Positions 35,365 to 57,030 of a stretch of 64,000 nucleotides of DNA are shown piece by piece. The stretch comes from Gemmataceae bacterium (GTDB lineage: Bacteria > Planctomycetota > Planctomycetia > Gemmatales > Gemmataceae), in contig JBJMQT010000091.1 of NCBI GenBank assembly GCA_045802525.1, positions 11,110 through 75,109 of the forward strand, written 5' to 3'. The position numbers and the translations under genes were made by a program. The notes beneath the pieces were generated by a model that saw only the letters and a program-made list of their open reading frames with translations, did no database searches and had not been told where the DNA came from. Position 1 is the first letter of the stretch. Each line of letters opens with the position of its first letter.

Positions 35365-35550
35365 GGACGGCTCCTTGAAAGAATCGGTGAGCGGGTGGCG
35401 TAAGCCCCCTGACGATGATTGAATGCCCTAATCAGGGAGTTTGCGCCGCCCGCTCACCTGTGAAGTCATTGTCCCCGGTTGTTTCCTCTCTGCCAAGGGA
35501 ACAAATCGCTGGCCGCCAAGTCCATTACAGGCTAAGATGCCCATGCTCAT

Positions 35551-35632
35551 CGCTAGGGGTGTCCGCCTTTGGAAGCGGGCTGAGAGTAGACCCTGGGACC
35601 TGATCCGGCTCATACCGGCGTGGGGAAGCGAG
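35551..35632 (+). promoter_or_regulatory. TPP (THI-box) riboswitch upstream of thiC
   Basis: CTAGGGGTGTCCGCC...GGGCTGAGAGTAGACCCTGGGACCTGATCCGGCTCATACCGGCGTGGGGAAGCG matches the conserved GGGGUGC..GCUGAGA..ACCC..ACCUGAUCYGGNUMAUACCRGCG..GGGA core. Confidence 0.9.
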
Positions 35633-35740
35633 ACGGCGTCATGCCTTTGAAATCATTTCCAGGGCGTTTTCGCTCCTCAACTTCCCGCCGAGTTTTCGCC
35701 TTGTCCCTTCGCCATTGTTCGCCCTTGGCCTGCACGATGA

Positions 35741-46711: not shown

Positions 46712-47148
46712 TAGTCATCTCCTAATAGTTCGTGCAATTCCGCGTTTGACCAGTTGAAAGAATGAATGCGCATCTGCTCGGGGTTGGCCTCCGCAGCGCT
46801 ATGAGCTTCCCTGTCGATCAGGGCCTCGAGTTCTTCGGGCGACCGGGCGAGAGCGCACTGGTAATCCAGAAGCGTGGGTTCGACCTTCTCTTCCGCGAGG
46901 GGCAAAACGTCACGGACAACAATCGGTTCGGGACGGACGTCGCGGCCGGACTGGCGCCAGAGAATGATCGCCGCCGCCAAGCAAGCAGCGGCCAAGCCGC
47001 CGGCCAGAGCAAGCCGCCACACCGGGGGAAACCTCCTGGGCGAAGCATCGACCAGCCGCTCGGCGACGCGCCGGCGCAACCGGGGTGATACTTCACAAGG
47101 CCGCAAAGCCGATAATTCGATTTCCAGGGGGTCAGGAGCATCATTCAT
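46711..47148 (-). CDS. Putative anti-sigma factor (single TM)
   Basis: 145 aa with the central TM WRLALAGGLAAACLAAAIILW. It overlaps the sigma gene by 4 nt (ATGA), in the classic position after an ECF sigma gene. Confidence 0.6.
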   Translation of the reverse strand: MNDAPDPLEIELSALRPCEVSPRLRRRVAERLVDASPRRFPPVWRLALAGGLAAACLAAAIILWRQSGRDVRPEPIVVRDVLPLAEEKVEPTLLDYQCALARSPEELEALIDREAHSAAEANPEQMRIHSFNWSNAELHELLGDD

Positions 47149-47642
47149 GGAATCGACTCCTCAGCCAATTGCTCGCGCAACTTGGCCAGAGCATAACGGT
47201 AGCGGGACGCGGCGGTGTTGGCGGAGATTCCCAGAGCCTCGGCGATCTGCGGAAACGATAAACCGCCCCAGATCTTCATCGCCAGCACCTCGCGCTGGTT
47301 TTCCGGGAGAAGCAACATGGCGTCGGCGATGGCAGTACGGCGTTCATCTTTCTCTAACGAACCGGCGAACAACGGCGCCCTTTCGGGGCGGGCGACCATC
47401 GCTTCTCGCCTAGACTGCCTCAGCCGATTGCGCTGCCAGTCCAGAGCACAATGCTTCATGCAGGCGTAGAGGTAAGCGGTTGGGTCCTTGGCTCGCTCTC
47501 TGGAGCGCCAGAAGCGGACAAAGGCTTCTTGGACAACATCCTCGGCATCCGCGCGGCTGGGCGCCCATTGCCGCGCCAAGAGGACCAGCACGGGCCCGTG
47601 CTTGTCGAGCCAAACTGCCCATTCGTCACGAGCGCCCGCCAT
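47145..47642 (-). CDS. ECF-type RNA polymerase sigma factor (sigma-70 family)
   Basis: Region 2 is DAEDVVQEAFVRFW, and the region 4 HTH is LSFPQIAEALGISANTAASRYRYALAKLR. Confidence 0.9.
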   Translation of the reverse strand: MAGARDEWAVWLDKHGPVLVLLARQWAPSRADAEDVVQEAFVRFWRSRERAKDPTAYLYACMKHCALDWQRNRLRQSRREAMVARPERAPLFAGSLEKDERRTAIADAMLLLPENQREVLAMKIWGGLSFPQIAEALGISANTAASRYRYALAKLREQLAEESIP

Positions 47643-48121: not shown

Positions 48122-48742
48122 TCATTGACTGCCAATTTCATCTCTTGCTCCCTGTGCTGATAGTGGCCGGTGCGAAATAACCGGCTCGATCCGGCGGTCC
48201 GGGACTAGCCAGATCACGGCTACAAGGCAGTACAGGGCACAGGCAATCCAGGGATGGATGAATGCCGCTAGAATAGCAACCAAGTATATGGCCACAGATG
48301 CCTTCCCTTTGAAATCGTTTCCGATCGCCGTCGCGATGGTAGATTCGCGACCGTGGTGCCCGATCAAGACACGCACGAGGATGTAGTAGGCCAGCCCTGA
48401 AAAAAGCAGGACCGTTCCATACGTGGCAACGGGCCAGGTGGCAAAGTGGCTCACTCCCAACCAGTTGGTGACAAAGGGAACAAGGGAAAGCCAAAACAAA
48501 AGATGGAGATTCGCCCAGAGGACACGGCCATTGACATGCTGTGTGGCCTGGAACAAGTGATGGTGGTTGTTCCAGTAAATGCCAACGTGAACAAAGCTCA
48601 GCATGTAACTCAGAAGCGTCGGGAGAAGAGGAGCCAACGAGACAATGTCCGATCCCTGCGGAGCTTTCAGATCGAGCACCATGATCGTGATAATGATTGC
48701 CAACACGCCATCACTAAATGCTTCCAACCGGCCTTTCTTCAT
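48122..48742 (-). CDS. TMEM175/DUF1211 family potassium-channel-like membrane protein
   Basis: The N-terminal RLEAFSDGVLAIIITIMVL motif is the family hallmark. The protein has 6 TM segments. Confidence 0.8.
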   Translation of the reverse strand: MKKGRLEAFSDGVLAIIITIMVLDLKAPQGSDIVSLAPLLPTLLSYMLSFVHVGIYWNNHHHLFQATQHVNGRVLWANLHLLFWLSLVPFVTNWLGVSHFATWPVATYGTVLLFSGLAYYILVRVLIGHHGRESTIATAIGNDFKGKASVAIYLVAILAAFIHPWIACALYCLVAVIWLVPDRRIEPVISHRPLSAQGARDEIGSQ

Positions 48743-48881: not shown

Positions 48882-50180
48882 TCACTTCTTGATCGCTTTT
48901 TCCGCCTCCTGCACTTTGTCCTCAATGAGTTTTTCATCCTCTTTACTCAGGCCAACTTGGCGGACAATAACGCCCTGGTGATCAATGAGGTAAAGGGTAG
49001 GCCAACCGGTTACGTTCCATTGCGAAGCAATGGGGCCATCCGTTGAGCCCTCGTCCCAGAAAGAACGCCAGGTCAGCTTTTCCTTGACCGAAACGCTCTT
49101 CACCAATTCGCGACTCGGATCACTGTTGATGCCGAGGATGACAAAGGGCTTGCCTTGAAACTTTTCCACGAGCGACCGCTCGTGTGGGTACATCGCCTGG
49201 CAAGGGCCTCACCAGTGTCCCCAGAAATCAAGGAGGACAACCTGGCCCTTGTAATCGCTCAGCTTTAACGGCTTACCCTCTATGTCTTCACCAGTGATCT
49301 CCGGGACCGGCTTGCCGGGTTGAAGCTCACGCCACTGGAATAGTTGCCGCTTGGCTAAGTCTCCTAGAGTGAGGGTCTTATCGCCGCGTACGATGGTCGC
49401 TCCGGAGTAGTCTTTGTCCTTGGTAATTTTCTCGAGAAGCTCCTCGGCCCGCTTTTTCTGTCCGACTTTGTCGCCCTTTCGAATATCGGCGATTGCTTCT
49501 GTGCCGTAATTCTTCTCAAAACTTTCAAGTTGTTTGGCGTCCGCTTTCTTCAGGAAATCCACCATGTCGGCCCGAGCGTCTAGAAGAAGGGCCAATGAAT
49601 AAGCTGCCTGGGACTGGACTTTTTTATCGGGATGCTTCGCCAATATTGTCTCAGCCAGTTCATTTGCCTTCGCATCGAAGAATTCGTGGCTAAGGGTCAT
49701 ACACAAACGGCCGATGCCGGGGTTATCGAAATGGTCTTTAATCAGAGCCGCTTTAGCGCGAGCGAAGGGCGTAGTCGTTTGATTGGGAGGCCGGCTCGAA
49801 TTGCGGACCGCCCAAATCAAGCCGTCGAACGCGGCGGGATCTTTTGGATTCTTTTCGGCGACGTCAACAACTAAGGCAGCATAGGCTTCCCGATCCGGCA
49901 TAAGCTCATAGAGCTTTTCTTGGTCTAGATCGGATTTGGCCGCCTCAAGTTTCTTGCGAAGAGCGGAAATAGCGCCCTCGCATTCTTTGATGAGAGCCTT
50001 GATTTGCTCGCCCGGTTTGCCGGGCGGCAAGGTCGGCTTGGTTGGCGGCTTCGGCGCTTCAGTCTGCACCTTGGCCGATTCCTTCTCCCGTGGCTCGTCG
50101 GCCGGTGCTGGCCCGCATGCCGCTAAAATGATCCAACCCGTCCAGCAACAAAAACGCATGGCAACCTTCCTTAGTCCCAT
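48882..50180 (-). CDS. TlpA/ResA-like thioredoxin-fold protein with in-frame TGA at the redox motif (W-U-G-P-C): candidate selenoprotein
   Basis: Track ORFs 49209..50180 and 48882..49193 are in the same frame, separated only by TGA (49209-49211) plus 5 codons. The read-through translation is ...YKGQVVLLDFWGHW-[TGA]-GPCQAMYPHERSLVEKFQGKPFVILGINSD..., which aligns with the canonical ...FWATWCGPCRAEMP... motif. The N-terminus is lipoprotein-like (MRFCCWTGWIILAAC). Confidence 0.8.
49167..49184 (-). promoter_or_regulatory. SECIS-like hairpin downstream of the in-frame UGA
   Basis: In the mRNA sense: CACGAGC-GGUC-GCUCGUG, a 7-bp perfect stem with a GGUC loop. It starts 24 nt after the UGA. An outer pairing CUUGCC...GGCAAG flanks it. 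Confidence 0.6.
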
Positions 50181-50345: not shown

Positions 50346-51107
50346 TCATCCTTTTGGCTCCTGCGACCGTTGTCCTTCCAAAACCTCGCGCCAAAAGGCG
50401 GGTCGACCGCGGTAGGCGGCCTGGTAAGTCATTTCAAGCGGCACGCGGATGTATCGATCCCAGCCTATAAGCAAAGGCATTTCAGGCAAAGCATCGCCAA
50501 CGGTCAGATGCTCTAAATACACTTCCGGAGCCGAACCGCCCGCGTAGGCAGCCAGGGTGAATGGTTCTGCTGCAGGCAAATCGTAAGGTTCGTTATCGAG
50601 ATATTCCCAGACCGCCCCGTGCATGCCGGCCGGGTCGAAGCGGCCCGGCGGAAACAGGTCCACTAAAAGCAGATGGATTCCAAGGTCAAGAGCAGCGACC
50701 ACTTTGCCGACGAATTCCTGCACATGTTCGGCCCGGTCCTTGTTGGCGGGTGACACCATCTCGATCAGCGCGATCAGCCGATGCCCGCTGACATGGCGGA
50801 TAGCGAGCGTACGGCGCAGACGGCGCAGGCTGCCGGCACTCTTGAGCTTCCGGCGAACCTTGGGCGGCGCCTCCGCGAGAATCAGTCCGCCGCTTTCTGG
50901 AGGCAATGGCGGCAAGGCGGTCTCGGGAGTTGTTGCGTAGAGGGCTAGCAAGTCCGCCACAAATTTCCCGGCATGCTGCTCCGTTAAGGCGTAATATCCC
51001 TGTGGAAGAAGGCCGCCATTGAAGGCGTTGGCAAGTTCCAGGACCCACGCGTTGTGGAAATCGTGAAAAATCCCTGCCTCCACGCGGGTCCAGTCATGAA
51101 CAGGCAT
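50346..51107 (-). CDS. DUF4058 family protein
   Basis: The N-terminus MPVHDWTRVEAGIFHDFHNAW is characteristic of DUF4058 (from memory). Confidence 0.7.
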   Translation of the reverse strand: MPVHDWTRVEAGIFHDFHNAWVLELANAFNGGLLPQGYYALTEQHAGKFVADLLALYATTPETALPPLPPESGGLILAEAPPKVRRKLKSAGSLRRLRRTLAIRHVSGHRLIALIEMVSPANKDRAEHVQEFVGKVVAALDLGIHLLLVDLFPPGRFDPAGMHGAVWEYLDNEPYDLPAAEPFTLAAYAGGSAPEVYLEHLTVGDALPEMPLLIGWDRYIRVPLEMTYQAAYRGRPAFWREVLEGQRSQEPKG

Positions 51108-51275: not shown

Positions 51276-52469
51276 ATGAGGCAATTCATGCAGCACGAAG
51301 CTATCCCAGGCGTGGATTCTACAATGGCGCCTTTGCCAGGCCGGCTTCGCGAAGTCTGCTGGGTCTTCCTTCGGTTAGGCTTTACTGCTTTCGGCGGGCC
51401 GGCGGCTCATATCGCGCTCATGGAAGACGAATTCGTGCGCCGGCGTCATTGGTTGACGCGCGAAAAGTTTCTGGATCTGCTCGGCGCCACCAACCTGATT
51501 CCGGGTCCGAATTCCACTGAGATGGCGATTCATCTGGGTTACTTGCGCGCGGGCCGGCTCGGACTCGTTATCGCGGGAACGTGTTTTCTATTGCCGGCGA
51601 CGCTGCTGGTAATGGGACTCGCGCGGGCTTATGTCTCCTACGGTTCCACTTGGGAAAACAGCCCATTGCTCTATGGTCTCAAGGCCGTGGTCATTGCCGT
51701 TATCGCCCAGGCGCTTTGGAACCTCGGCCGGTCAGCGATTCGGTCGCCTTTGATTCTGCTTGTGGCCTTCGTCGCGGCCGGGTTTAACGCTTTTCACGTT
51801 CATGAATTGGCGGTCTTATTCGGGGCGGGATTTGCCGTTTTGCTTTGCCGGGAATTTAGACGTCCTCAAAAAACCGGCCCTGCGCCTGCCTTGTTCCTGC
51901 CTACACTGCCGCTGGCCGTCACCGGCGTCGGCGCGACCGGGGCAGGCATTGGTCTTGGAACTCTGTTTTTGATCTTCCTCAAGATCGGCGCCTTCCTCTT
52001 TGGCAGCGGCTACGTGCTCCTGGCTTTTCTAAGAGCGGACTTGGTGGAGCGGGGCGGTTGGTTAACCGAGCAGCAACTGTTCGACGCCATCGCCGCCGGC
52101 CAGGTGACGCCGGGGCCGGTATCAACGACCGCGGCATTTATCGGCTACGTCCTGCTCGGTCCGCTCGGAGCGCTGGTTGCGACGATCGGCATTTTTCTTC
52201 CGGGATTTGTATTCGTGGCTTTGAGCGGACCGTTGATTCCGCGGATACGCCGGTCCAGAGGGGCGGGGGACTTTTTGGACGGTGTGAACGCCGGCGCATT
52301 AGCGTTGATGGCCGTGGTCACCTGGCAGCTCGGAACGAAGGCGTTAATCGATGTGCCGACCTGGGCGATGGCCCTAGTGAGTCTGGTGATTCTGGTGCGC
52401 TATCGGATTAATTCGGTCTGGTTAATGGCCGTGGGCGGTTTGCTGGGAATGGCTTGGAAAGCTGTCTGA
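51276..52469 (+). CDS. chrA: Chromate transporter (CHR family)
   Basis: FLRLGFTAFGGPAAHIALMEDEFVRRRHWL and a second internal repeat FGSGYVLLAFL...GQVTPGP, showing the duplicated CHR domains. Confidence 0.85.
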   Translation: MRQFMQHEAIPGVDSTMAPLPGRLREVCWVFLRLGFTAFGGPAAHIALMEDEFVRRRHWLTREKFLDLLGATNLIPGPNSTEMAIHLGYLRAGRLGLVIAGTCFLLPATLLVMGLARAYVSYGSTWENSPLLYGLKAVVIAVIAQALWNLGRSAIRSPLILLVAFVAAGFNAFHVHELAVLFGAGFAVLLCREFRRPQKTGPAPALFLPTLPLAVTGVGATGAGIGLGTLFLIFLKIGAFLFGSGYVLLAFLRADLVERGGWLTEQQLFDAIAAGQVTPGPVSTTAAFIGYVLLGPLGALVATIGIFLPGFVFVALSGPLIPRIRRSRGAGDFLDGVNAGALALMAVVTWQLGTKALIDVPTWAMALVSLVILVRYRINSVWLMAVGGLLGMAWKAV

Positions 52470-55608: not shown

Positions 55609-57030
55609 CTATGACACAATGCCTTTGACGAGTTCGCCGAACACATCGGTCAAGCGCATATCGCGGCCGCCAAATCGATAAGTCACCTTCTTATGATCCA
55701 ATCCTAGCAGATGGAGCATGGTGGCATGAAGATCGTGCATGGGCACTTTATCTTCAATCGCATGATAGCCGTAGTCGTCGGTGGCGCCATGGATATGGCC
55801 GGCCTTGACGCCGCCGCCGGCCAGCCACATGGTGTAGCCGAAGGGGTTGTGGTCGCGGCCATCGCTGCCTTGCGCCATAGGCGTTCTGCCGAATTCGCCG
55901 CCCCAAAGGACCAAGGTCGAATCGAGAAGACCGCGCGATTTTAGGTCTTTGAGCAGACCCGCGATGGGTTTATCCACGGCGCGGGCGTTGGATTCGTGGC
56001 CGCCCTTTAGGTTACTGTGCTGGTCCCAGCGATCGTGGCCGAGATTGGAACAGAGCAGTTCGATGAACCGGACGCCTCGTTCGATCAAACGGCGAGCAAT
56101 CAAGCATTGGCGGCCAAAGATCTCCGTCTTTTGGTCATCGATTCCATAGAGGTCCTTCGTGGCGTCGGTTTCTCCTTTCAGGTCCATCAGGTCCGGCACG
56201 GCGGTCTGCATGCGAAACGCCAACTCATAATTCGCAATGGCGGCTTCCAGCTTGTCGCCGCCGCCGCTGCGCTTCATTAAACCGCGATCGAGCTTTTGCA
56301 TGAGACCGAGCTTGCCTTGCTGTAACTTCGCGGTTGATTCGCTGGACTTCAGATCAGCAACGGGAACGTTGCCGCGCTGAAAAAGCGAACCCTGATAAGA
56401 CGCAGGCAAAAAGCCGCTGTTGAAGCAGTCGAGGCCGCCGGGCGGAATCATCCCGCTATGAAGCACGATGAAACCAGGCAGGTTCTTGCACTCCGAACCC
56501 AGGCCGTAAGTAACCCAAGAACCCATGCTGGGCCGGCCCTGCTGGGTGCTCCCTGAATGCAAGAAATAATTGGCGTTGGTGTGGACGGACGATTCCGAAA
56601 CCATCGAACGGATGAGGCAAAGGTCATCGGCGCACTGACCGACGTTTGGAAACAGGTCGCTGACCGGAATGCCGCTCTTGCCATAGTTTTTGAATTTCCA
56701 GGGCGACTGCAGCACCGTGCCGACGTTGTTGAATTGCGTCGGTTCGACTTTAACTTTGATAGGCTGGCCGTGTTCCTTGGCAAGCCGCGGCTTGGGATCG
56801 AACGTGTCCATTTGCGAAGGACCGCCGTCCATGTACAGGAAAATGACGTTCTTCGCCTTAGCTCTATAGTGGGGTGACTTCGGCGCTAGTGGATCTTTGT
56901 CGGCAGGGCTAGCTCCGTAAGCCGGGTCGCCGAGGAGCGCCGTGAGAGCTAGAGCGCCGAAGCCATTGGCACACTGGGCCAGCATTTCACGGCGAGACAG
57001 TGGCGGTCGCACGAAATTGTTGCAATGCAT
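55609..57030 (-). CDS. DUF1501 domain protein (sulfatase-like) with a Tat-type leader
   Basis: The leader is SRREMLAQCANGFGALALTALLG. DGGPSQMDTFDPKP, GGEFGRTP and DGRDHNP are typical DUF1501 blocks. Confidence 0.85.
   Translation of the reverse strand: MHCNNFVRPPLSRREMLAQCANGFGALALTALLGDPAYGASPADKDPLAPKSPHYRAKAKNVIFLYMDGGPSQMDTFDPKPRLAKEHGQPIKVKVEPTQFNNVGTVLQSPWKFKNYGKSGIPVSDLFPNVGQCADDLCLIRSMVSESSVHTNANYFLHSGSTQQGRPSMGSWVTYGLGSECKNLPGFIVLHSGMIPPGGLDCFNSGFLPASYQGSLFQRGNVPVADLKSSESTAKLQQGKLGLMQKLDRGLMKRSGGGDKLEAAIANYELAFRMQTAVPDLMDLKGETDATKDLYGIDDQKTEIFGRQCLIARRLIERGVRFIELLCSNLGHDRWDQHSNLKGGHESNARAVDKPIAGLLKDLKSRGLLDSTLVLWGGEFGRTPMAQGSDGRDHNPFGYTMWLAGGGVKAGHIHGATDDYGYHAIEDKVPMHDLHATMLHLLGLDHKKVTYRFGGRDMRLTDVFGELVKGIVS

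Follow-up and report, generated by a model that had tools for sequence, protein, structure and literature searches.

On the minus strand of a 64,000-nucleotide stretch of Gemmataceae DNA (assembly GCA_045802525.1, contig JBJMQT010000091.1, positions 11,110 to 75,109; the whole stretch is called the window here), the region from position 50180 or 50159 down to 48882 is very probably one gene for an exported two-domain thiol-disulfide oxidoreductase with selenocysteine (Sec, U) as the nucleophile in a U-G-P-C motif. Our analysis established that the region is a single reading frame, that its internal UGA stands on a Cys column, that this TGA is conserved among homologues, that the sequence downstream of it is coding, that the hairpin behind it is conserved as RNA with covariation, and to which fold the product belongs. 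The parts of the gene are listed below, position 1 being the first letter of the window.

49212-50180, minus strand: 5' part of the coding sequence, which encodes the signal peptide, then an all-helical domain of about 230 amino acids at the N-terminus, and finally the thioredoxin fold up to its first strands, with ...LLDFWGHW as the last residues (list of open reading frames, translation).
49209-49211, minus strand: in-frame UGA at the nucleophilic first position of U-G-P-C, predicted to be read as Sec (sequence, homologue column).
49167-49184, minus strand: putative core of the selenocysteine insertion sequence (SECIS), stem CACGAGC/GCUCGUG with loop GGUC (folding, conservation, covariation).
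49149-49204, minus strand: outer pairing of CUUGCC (49204-49199) with GGCAAG (49154-49149), from the minimum-free-energy fold and probably not part of the conserved element.
48885-49208, minus strand: 3' part of the coding sequence, from GPCQAMYPHERSLV... to ...EKAIKK, with the remaining ResA/TlpA-type thioredoxin fold and the resolving Cys (Pfam, alignment with the Cys homologue P0007, codon periodicity).
48882-48884, minus strand: true stop codon, TGA, with no SECIS-like hairpin after it (sequence).

The list of open reading frames and their translation showed that the minus-strand frame runs from ATG 50180 to TGA 48884-48882 and that its sole break is the TGA at 49211-49209. The reading frames of 323 amino acids (50180..49209) and 103 amino acids (49193..48882) share this one frame, and just the TGA and the codons GGC CCT TGC CAG GCG lie between them. 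This layout had been proposed in an earlier reading of the window that used the letters alone (the sequence-only reading), and its coordinates were confirmed, on the minus strand. The read-through product is ...LLDFWGHW-U-GPCQAMYPHERSLV..., and over a longer stretch it reads ...KLSDYKGQVVLLDFWGHW-U-GPCQAMYPHERSLVEKFQGKPFVILGINSD.... The same reading had given the fused product 432 amino acids, counted from 50180, but the start more likely lies at the second ATG, 50159 (MRFCCW...), because the GenBank call and the closest homologues begin there, and the product would then have 425 amino acids. It had also suspected that gene calling mis-split the gene, and GenBank does hold two proteins from the same Gemmataceae metagenome-assembled genome (MAG): MFL5243326.1, 'TlpA family protein disulfide reductase', 316 amino acids, to which the 5' part is identical from M8, and MFL5243325.1, 'peroxiredoxin family protein', 103 amino acids, which begins at Met 49193. 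The 103-amino-acid fragment is called separately in JGI and ENA assemblies too (cluster members P0122 and P0123, at least 90% identical). TGA terminates 10 of the 30 long open reading frames in the window, and it terminates this gene itself 108 codons past the internal TGA. UGA is thus an ordinary stop elsewhere in the window, which excludes a genome-wide reassignment of UGA, so that its recoding at the internal site must be governed by the local context.

Searching proteins with the fused product as query found 555 relatives, the best 120 of which were inspected, and DNA was collected at 80 loci each from metagenomes and from species-representative genomes. Among those 120 there were 44 (39-77% identity) whose sequence ends exactly at ...LDFWG[HDNFY]W, and full-length homologues have WCGPC, WCPPC or WCVAC where the others end. 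At this column the metagenome loci had TGA 50 times and TGC/TGT 12 times, and the genome loci had TGA 60 times and TGC/TGT 20 times; one 'TAA' row among the genome loci was an off-target match of the regular expression in a non-coding frame. A stricter combined tally gave 111 TGA forms, the window included, and 30 TGC/TGT forms, and TAA or TAG never occurred. The alignment with the closest full-length Cys homologue, P0007 (49% identity), is unbroken across the UGA and puts the X written for the UGA opposite the first C of WCGPC, so the claim of the sequence-only reading that the stop falls on the nucleophilic Cys column held, and Cys sits at this column in the Cys homologues. The carriers are mostly Planctomycetota (Gemmataceae, Pirellulaceae, Planctomycetaceae, Phycisphaerae), with some Verrucomicrobiota and also metagenome loci. 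Cys forms occur in Anatilimnocola sp. NA78, the sole complete isolate genome listed, and in a MAG labelled Gemmata sp.

TGA differs from TGC and TGT by a single base, and the source of the window is a MAG; both would suit a pseudogene or an assembly error, that is, a TGC/TGT-to-TGA nonsense change or a miscalled base in a Cys-type TlpA-like gene. But the same TGA stands in 110 other independently assembled loci with roughly 30-77% protein identity, the downstream frame is open with coding periodicity, and a dedicated RNA hairpin is retained in the TGA forms only. The 110 independent TGA loci and the hairpin refute this explanation in practice, and we give it a negligible chance.

All Sec forms stay in frame past the TGA, with the pattern [GP]-P-C-R-A-M-Y-P-H-E-R-S-L-V-.... 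For codon and pairing statistics, 49 distinct Sec-form sequences were aligned. The entropy at codon positions 1, 2 and 3 was 0.36, 0.45 and 0.83 bits from the UGA to the hairpin, and 0.82, 0.43 and 1.32 bits past the hairpin. The third position is the most variable, as expected if the sequence after the UGA is translated in this frame. One Sec form (L032:3504-3530) has an extra in-frame TAG seven codons past the TGA (...GPCRAM*AHERSLV), and this copy may be a pseudogene or contain a sequencing error.

These data also bear on whether the region makes two products, as GenBank annotates it, with the helical domain ending at the UGA and the C-terminal 103 amino acids initiated at ATG 49193. GenBank and IMG both call two genes, and an ATG lies five codons past the UGA in 48 of the 49 Sec forms; however, Met is also frequent at this column in the Cys homologues, so the ATG probably reflects nothing more than a residue common in the family. 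Between the UGA and this ATG, the codons are kept as amino acids (Cys in 49/49, Pro in 48/49) while their third positions vary, and such synonymous variation is unexpected for an untranslated spacer. Moreover, two separate products would cut the thioredoxin fold through its active site and leave the hairpin without a role. We therefore assign this explanation a very slight probability and return to the single gene with a recoded UGA.

The Sec-form genes are often found in tandem (L012, at 1750 and 2274; L092, L103, L104 and L123; proteins P0062, P0080, P0084 and P0119), and the tandem copies lead to chimeric gene calls, in which the called protein starts at the Met following one Sec codon and stops at the TGA of the copy behind it. 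Sec or Cys forms were also found in MAGs labelled Akkermansia muciniphila, Deltaproteobacteria, Bacillota, Acidobacteriota and Vicinamibacterales (L084, L118, L125, L140, L143, L159). Mis-binning, mislabelling or horizontal transfer could account for these loci, and near-identical SECIS elements across phyla would fit horizontal transfer. Some distant homologues of about 730 amino acids (P0070, P0075) combine sigma-70 region 2 and region 4 domains with the TlpA-like domain, and they are either real fusions or merged gene calls.

The hairpin behind the UGA is 18 nt long and consists of the stem CACGAGC (49184-49178), the loop GGUC (49177-49174) and the stem GCUCGUG (49173-49167), which form 7 bp. 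It lies within the codons for His-Glu-Arg-Ser-Leu-Val, with 24 nt from the UGA to the stem and 31 nt to the loop. The minimum-free-energy fold contains it, enclosed by CUUGCC/GGCAAG, and the isolated hairpin has an energy of -10.5 kcal/mol. The published model of the bacterial SECIS has a loop of 3-9 nt, a stem of 4-16 bp, a G in the first two loop positions, 16-37 nt between UGA and loop, and an energy of -7.5 kcal/mol or lower (PMC13188914); with its 4-nt loop starting with GG, its stem, its spacing and its energy, the hairpin agrees with every one of these rules. In the window there are 9 perfect hairpins with 7 bp and a 4-nt loop, against about 5 in shuffled sequence, and on both strands this is the sole hairpin with a GGUC loop and a stem of at least 6 bp, 31 nt past an in-frame TGA. 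The hairpin in a single sequence alone is weak evidence. It is far above chance because it is conserved in 111 homologous loci.

Conservation was seen at the level of the RNA. The hairpin codons are near-fixed at synonymous sites (CGG 48/48, TCG 48/48, CTC 47/48, GAG 46/48 and CAC 46/48), with a codon entropy of 0-0.25 bits in these five codons and 0.64 bits in the Val codon; at the conserved Pro, Gly, Leu and Arg codons nearby, three to six synonyms occur, with 1.2-2.1 bits. In the inner stem 98.3% of the cells are paired, and three of the seven pairs have changes on both sides that preserve pairing: GAA...UUC, with Leu changed to Phe, in L038 and L105; GAC...GUC, with His changed to Asp, in L062; and CAU...AUG, with Val changed to Met, in L064. 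These changes thus kept the pairing at the cost of amino-acid replacements. The Sec and Cys forms were clearly separated by the hairpin. The GGTC loop is present in 104 of the 111 Sec forms and in none of the 30 Cys forms; at least six of the seven stem pairs form in 106/111 Sec forms, and all seven form in 0/30 Cys forms. This holds also for Cys forms that still encode HERSLV, such as L065 (CAC GAG CGC TCC CTC GTC) and L120. Together these patterns indicate that the hairpin is selected as RNA, and only in the TGA forms. The proposal of the sequence-only reading that this is a selenoprotein gene with a SECIS after the UGA was therefore supported by the TGA loci, the coding periodicity and the restriction of the hairpin to TGA forms. 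Of the hairpin that it described, the perfect 7-bp stem, the GGUC loop and the distance of 24 nt stood, but the outer pairing CUUGCC/GGCAAG is not conserved: only 68% of its cells are paired, two of its pairs cannot form in roughly half of the sequences or more, and it is absent from the RNAalifold consensus, so we rejected it as a part of the element. RNAalifold further predicted a small 5' helix with the UGA in it, which was also rejected, being without covariation and explained by the conserved codons.

Among the metagenomic homologues 17 have a UxxU motif, with TGA at both Cys columns in 17/17, in the context ...DFWS-x-x-TGA-L-T-TGA-RAQWPHERSLV (for example L016:1131-1142). They are L016, L019, L024, L025, L030, L031, L036, L051, L053, L054, L056, L057, L059, L074, L075, L076 and L080. 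The same hairpin follows in the same register, so that two UGAs 9 nt apart would share a single SECIS. The UxxU motif has been listed for peroxiredoxin (Prx)-like selenoproteins (PMC13188914).

The machinery for Sec was searched for by tblastn with E. coli SelA, SelB and SelD and, for tRNA-Sec, by ARAGORN, which covered the window and, of the related loci, only the 80 from genomes; neither search found any of it. One translational-GTPase match, in L021, looks by its sequence like BipA/TypA and not SelB, and L088 gave only a weak GTPase-domain match. The statement of the sequence-only reading that no sel gene is visible in the window agrees with tblastn and ARAGORN. Gemmata obscuriglobus, of the same family, and Isosphaera pallida have been reported with selA, selB, selC and selD (PMC4807772, main text and Table S8), and we infer Sec decoding by the present organism from such relatives.

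Several points weigh against the assignment as a selenoprotein gene. Selenium incorporation is predicted from sequence and not from experiment, and no selA, selB, selD or tRNA-Sec was found in the 64-kb window or in the flanks of the 160 related loci. The 86-nt single-sequence fold is unremarkable (z = -0.33 against dinucleotide shuffles). The region has no Rfam match at the gathering threshold, and a permissive E-value gave noise; we know of no Rfam model for bacterial SECIS elements. The hairpin varies little, and its covariation amounts to three pairs, each double-changed in one of the 49 aligned sequences. Finally, some TGA forms are without the canonical hairpin (L072:1867, L134:10606, L137:10159, L145:5034 and L154:10507). 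Likewise, L129 and L133 are TGA forms without the canonical CACGAGC-GGUC-GCUCGUG. The peptides in hairpin-less TGA forms are, for example, HEKALV, HEREMV, HERELV and HEKTLV, and these forms may use another loop or hairpin, or may be decaying copies.

With the Sec machinery of this genome inferred rather than demonstrated, a read-through without selenium has to be weighed as well. Bacterial stop-codon read-through stimulated by a downstream structure exists, and the UGA might be read by a near-cognate tRNA-Trp or tRNA-Cys, by Cys carried on tRNA-Sec, or by local reassignment, the hairpin only slowing termination. However, the UGA stands exactly on the catalytic Cys column, which is the signature of Sec/Cys pairs (PMC1794560, PMC1088965), and the GGUC loop equals that of the E. 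coli fdhF SECIS. In the 17 UxxU relatives the insertion of Trp or another near-cognate amino acid would destroy the redox motif, and the Gemmataceae include a species with a full sel gene set. We regard read-through without selenium as having a slight probability.

On the selenoprotein assignment, the UGA at 49211-49209 would be recoded co-translationally, with the CACGAGC-GGUC-GCUCGUG hairpin inside the reading frame serving as the bacterial SECIS. SelB with Sec-tRNA(Sec) would bind the GGUC loop and bring Sec to the ribosome paused at the UGA, and translation would then resume to the real stop at 48884-48882 and give a full-length protein of about 425 amino acids. The mature protein would work outside the cytoplasm, presumably as a reductant. 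A selenenylsulfide would form between U and the resolving Cys of U-G-P-C, and the Sec form would be more reactive than its Cys homologues. The helical domain may act as an adaptor for a substrate or partner.

The architecture of the protein was analyzed by domain search and alignment on the fused product with U written as C or X. In residues 287-415 the best Pfam match was AhpC-TSA (PF00578; 68.3 bits against a cut-off of 26), followed by Redoxin (PF08534; 53.4 against 26.6) and Thioredoxin_8 (PF13905; 50.8 against 27). The matched domain thus extends across codon 324, and each of the two pieces has an incomplete fold; this agrees with the earlier suggestion that the 103-amino-acid piece is the rest of the same fold, as does the continuous alignment with P0007. 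The redox motif lies at the N-terminus of helix 1 and is W-U-G-P-C in the window gene. The AlphaFold model of P0007 (mean predicted local distance difference test score, pLDDT, 93) has an all-helical N-terminal domain of about 200 residues and then a thioredoxin fold. In Foldseek this model superposed on 4nmu, 3fw2, ResA (1st9, 1su9) and TlpA (4txo), and its matches comprised Bacillus ResA, Bradyrhizobium TlpA, Chlorobium DsbE and several Bacteroides thiol-disulfide oxidoreductases. The closest matches reached target template-modelling scores of 0.8-0.89, and TlpA reached 0.63. AlphaFold modelled the N-terminal fragment of the window protein (mean pLDDT 85) as a helical repeat with helices in 56-259. 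For the N-terminal helical domain there was no significant fold match in the PDB, the best being helical repeats of the tetratricopeptide-repeat-like or BamD-like type at E = 0.19, and no Pfam family at E < 0.01.

A signal peptide begins the window protein and nearly all of its homologues, which suggests that the window protein is exported. A lipoprotein with an 'LAAC' lipobox was considered and rejected; the lipobox is not kept in the closest homologues, which have ordinary signal peptides. Assignment to a narrower family also failed. The NCBIfam subfamily model for ResA (NF002854) scored 68.6 against a cut-off of 170, the equivalog for TlpA (NF047696) scored 54.5 against 230, and the model for the ResA-like WAxxUGC motif-containing selenoprotein (NF041054) scored 34 against 300 bits, the motif here being FWGHW-U-GPC. 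With scores so far under the cut-offs, the protein is a member of the TlpA-like superfamily and no orthologue of ResA, TlpA or NF041054. Nor does the name peroxiredoxin, which GenBank gives to the 103-amino-acid fragment, fit the protein: it is without the peroxidatic PxxxTxxC/U motif, and its active site is of the thioredoxin-like W-U-G-P-C type.

The protein was compared with known systems, and the three selenoprotein families below by their published descriptions only. The thiol-disulfide isomerase-like selenoproteins (CDD cd02966, TlpA-like, UxxC) were first predicted from the Sargasso Sea metagenome (PMC1088965) and are listed in a 2026 review with the representative MGB1650493.1 (PMC13188914). 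They share with the window protein the TlpA-like fold, Sec as the first residue of UxxC and widespread Cys homologues, and they were predicted by the same logic of Sec/Cys pairs plus SECIS, whereas the window protein adds an N-terminal helical domain of about 230 amino acids and a signal peptide. The Prx-like thiol:disulfide oxidoreductase selenoproteins (PF00578, UxxC or UxxU, one or two Sec; PMC13188914, PMC1794560) are alike in that PF00578 is the best match here, the motif is the thioredoxin-like UxxC and not the TxxU of peroxiredoxins, and UxxU relatives with two UGAs occur; in the review, TxxU Prx and UxxC Prx-like proteins are treated as separate groups (PMC13188914; PMC1088965). In contrast to the window gene, they have been described mainly from Deltaproteobacteria (Geobacter, Desulfotalea, Syntrophus). 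From the same phylum, a 2016 study of planctomycete P1 listed split 'thiol-disulfide isomerase-like thioredoxin' and AhpC/TSA proteins as selenoprotein candidates (PMC4807772 Table S9). There, too, two adjacent genes were annotated and the closest hits have Cys at the UGA column, but bSECISearch found no SECIS for the two isomerase-like candidates, while the SECIS here is strongly conserved. The Cys-type extracytoplasmic oxidoreductases ResA, TlpA, CcmG/DsbE and Etrx are similar in fold, in the W-C/U-x-P-C motif and in the signal peptide, and they differ from the window protein, which has Sec for the first Cys and the added helical domain.

The E. coli K-12 fdhF gene has its UGA at codon 140, followed by a hairpin whose GGUC apical loop lies 18 nt downstream. 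Both elements are hairpins within the coding sequence just 3' of the UGA with the same apical loop, but the window hairpin has an unbroken 7-bp stem, with 31 nt between the UGA and the loop. In the fdhF stem a bulged U is required for SelB binding.

UxxC selenoproteins of the TlpA-like and Prx-like types have thus already been described, planctomycete candidates included, and the new gene joins a known class (PMC13188914, PMC1088965, PMC4807772 Table S9). The current understanding of Sec decoding is unchanged. A broader idea, which we find rather doubtful, is that the gene belongs to a distinct and uncatalogued subfamily across the Planctomycetota-Verrucomicrobiota (PVC) group, defined by a signal peptide, a novel helical-repeat domain and a Sec-TlpA fold, with frequent tandem arrays, an 18-nt SECIS that is near-invariant from phylum to phylum and dictates HERSLV, and UxxU relatives with one hairpin. 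If this were true, the subfamily would rank with the most common selenoproteins of planctomycetes in soil and aquatic habitats, and its hairpin would be a natural minimal SECIS module.

The main value of the result is a correction of annotation. Merging both records would correct the proteome, and the merged gene would mark this Gemmataceae organism as a probable selenium user. The same correction would reach many homologues, which gene callers cut at the same column. The result also suggests that exported selenoenzymes of this family are abundant in Planctomycetota and Verrucomicrobiota. The gene is also a clear case of an RNA signal that freezes the codons and the peptide (HERSLV) which it overlaps, and the short near-invariant hairpin together with the natural UxxU variants could provide compact test cases for the recognition of SECIS by SelB.

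A scan for further selenoprotein genes in the window gave 90 in-frame TGA candidates with an open frame on both sides, nearly all of them off-frame artefacts or gene junctions; a redox context together with a hairpin was found at this gene alone. The neighbouring genes are as follows.

47145-47642, minus strand: gene for an extracytoplasmic function (ECF) sigma factor, two genes downstream of the selenoprotein gene.
48122-48742, minus strand: TMEM175-type K+ channel.
50346-51107, minus strand: DUF4058 protein.
51276-52469, plus strand: chromate transporter.
55609-57030, minus strand: DUF1501 protein, typical of planctomycetes.

The last four of these neighbours are unrelated to selenium or cytochrome maturation, so the surroundings give no operon clue to the substrate. 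Elsewhere in the window, a thiamine pyrophosphate (TPP) riboswitch was found at 35545-35643 on the plus strand (Rfam RF00059), with 63 bits, above the gathering score.

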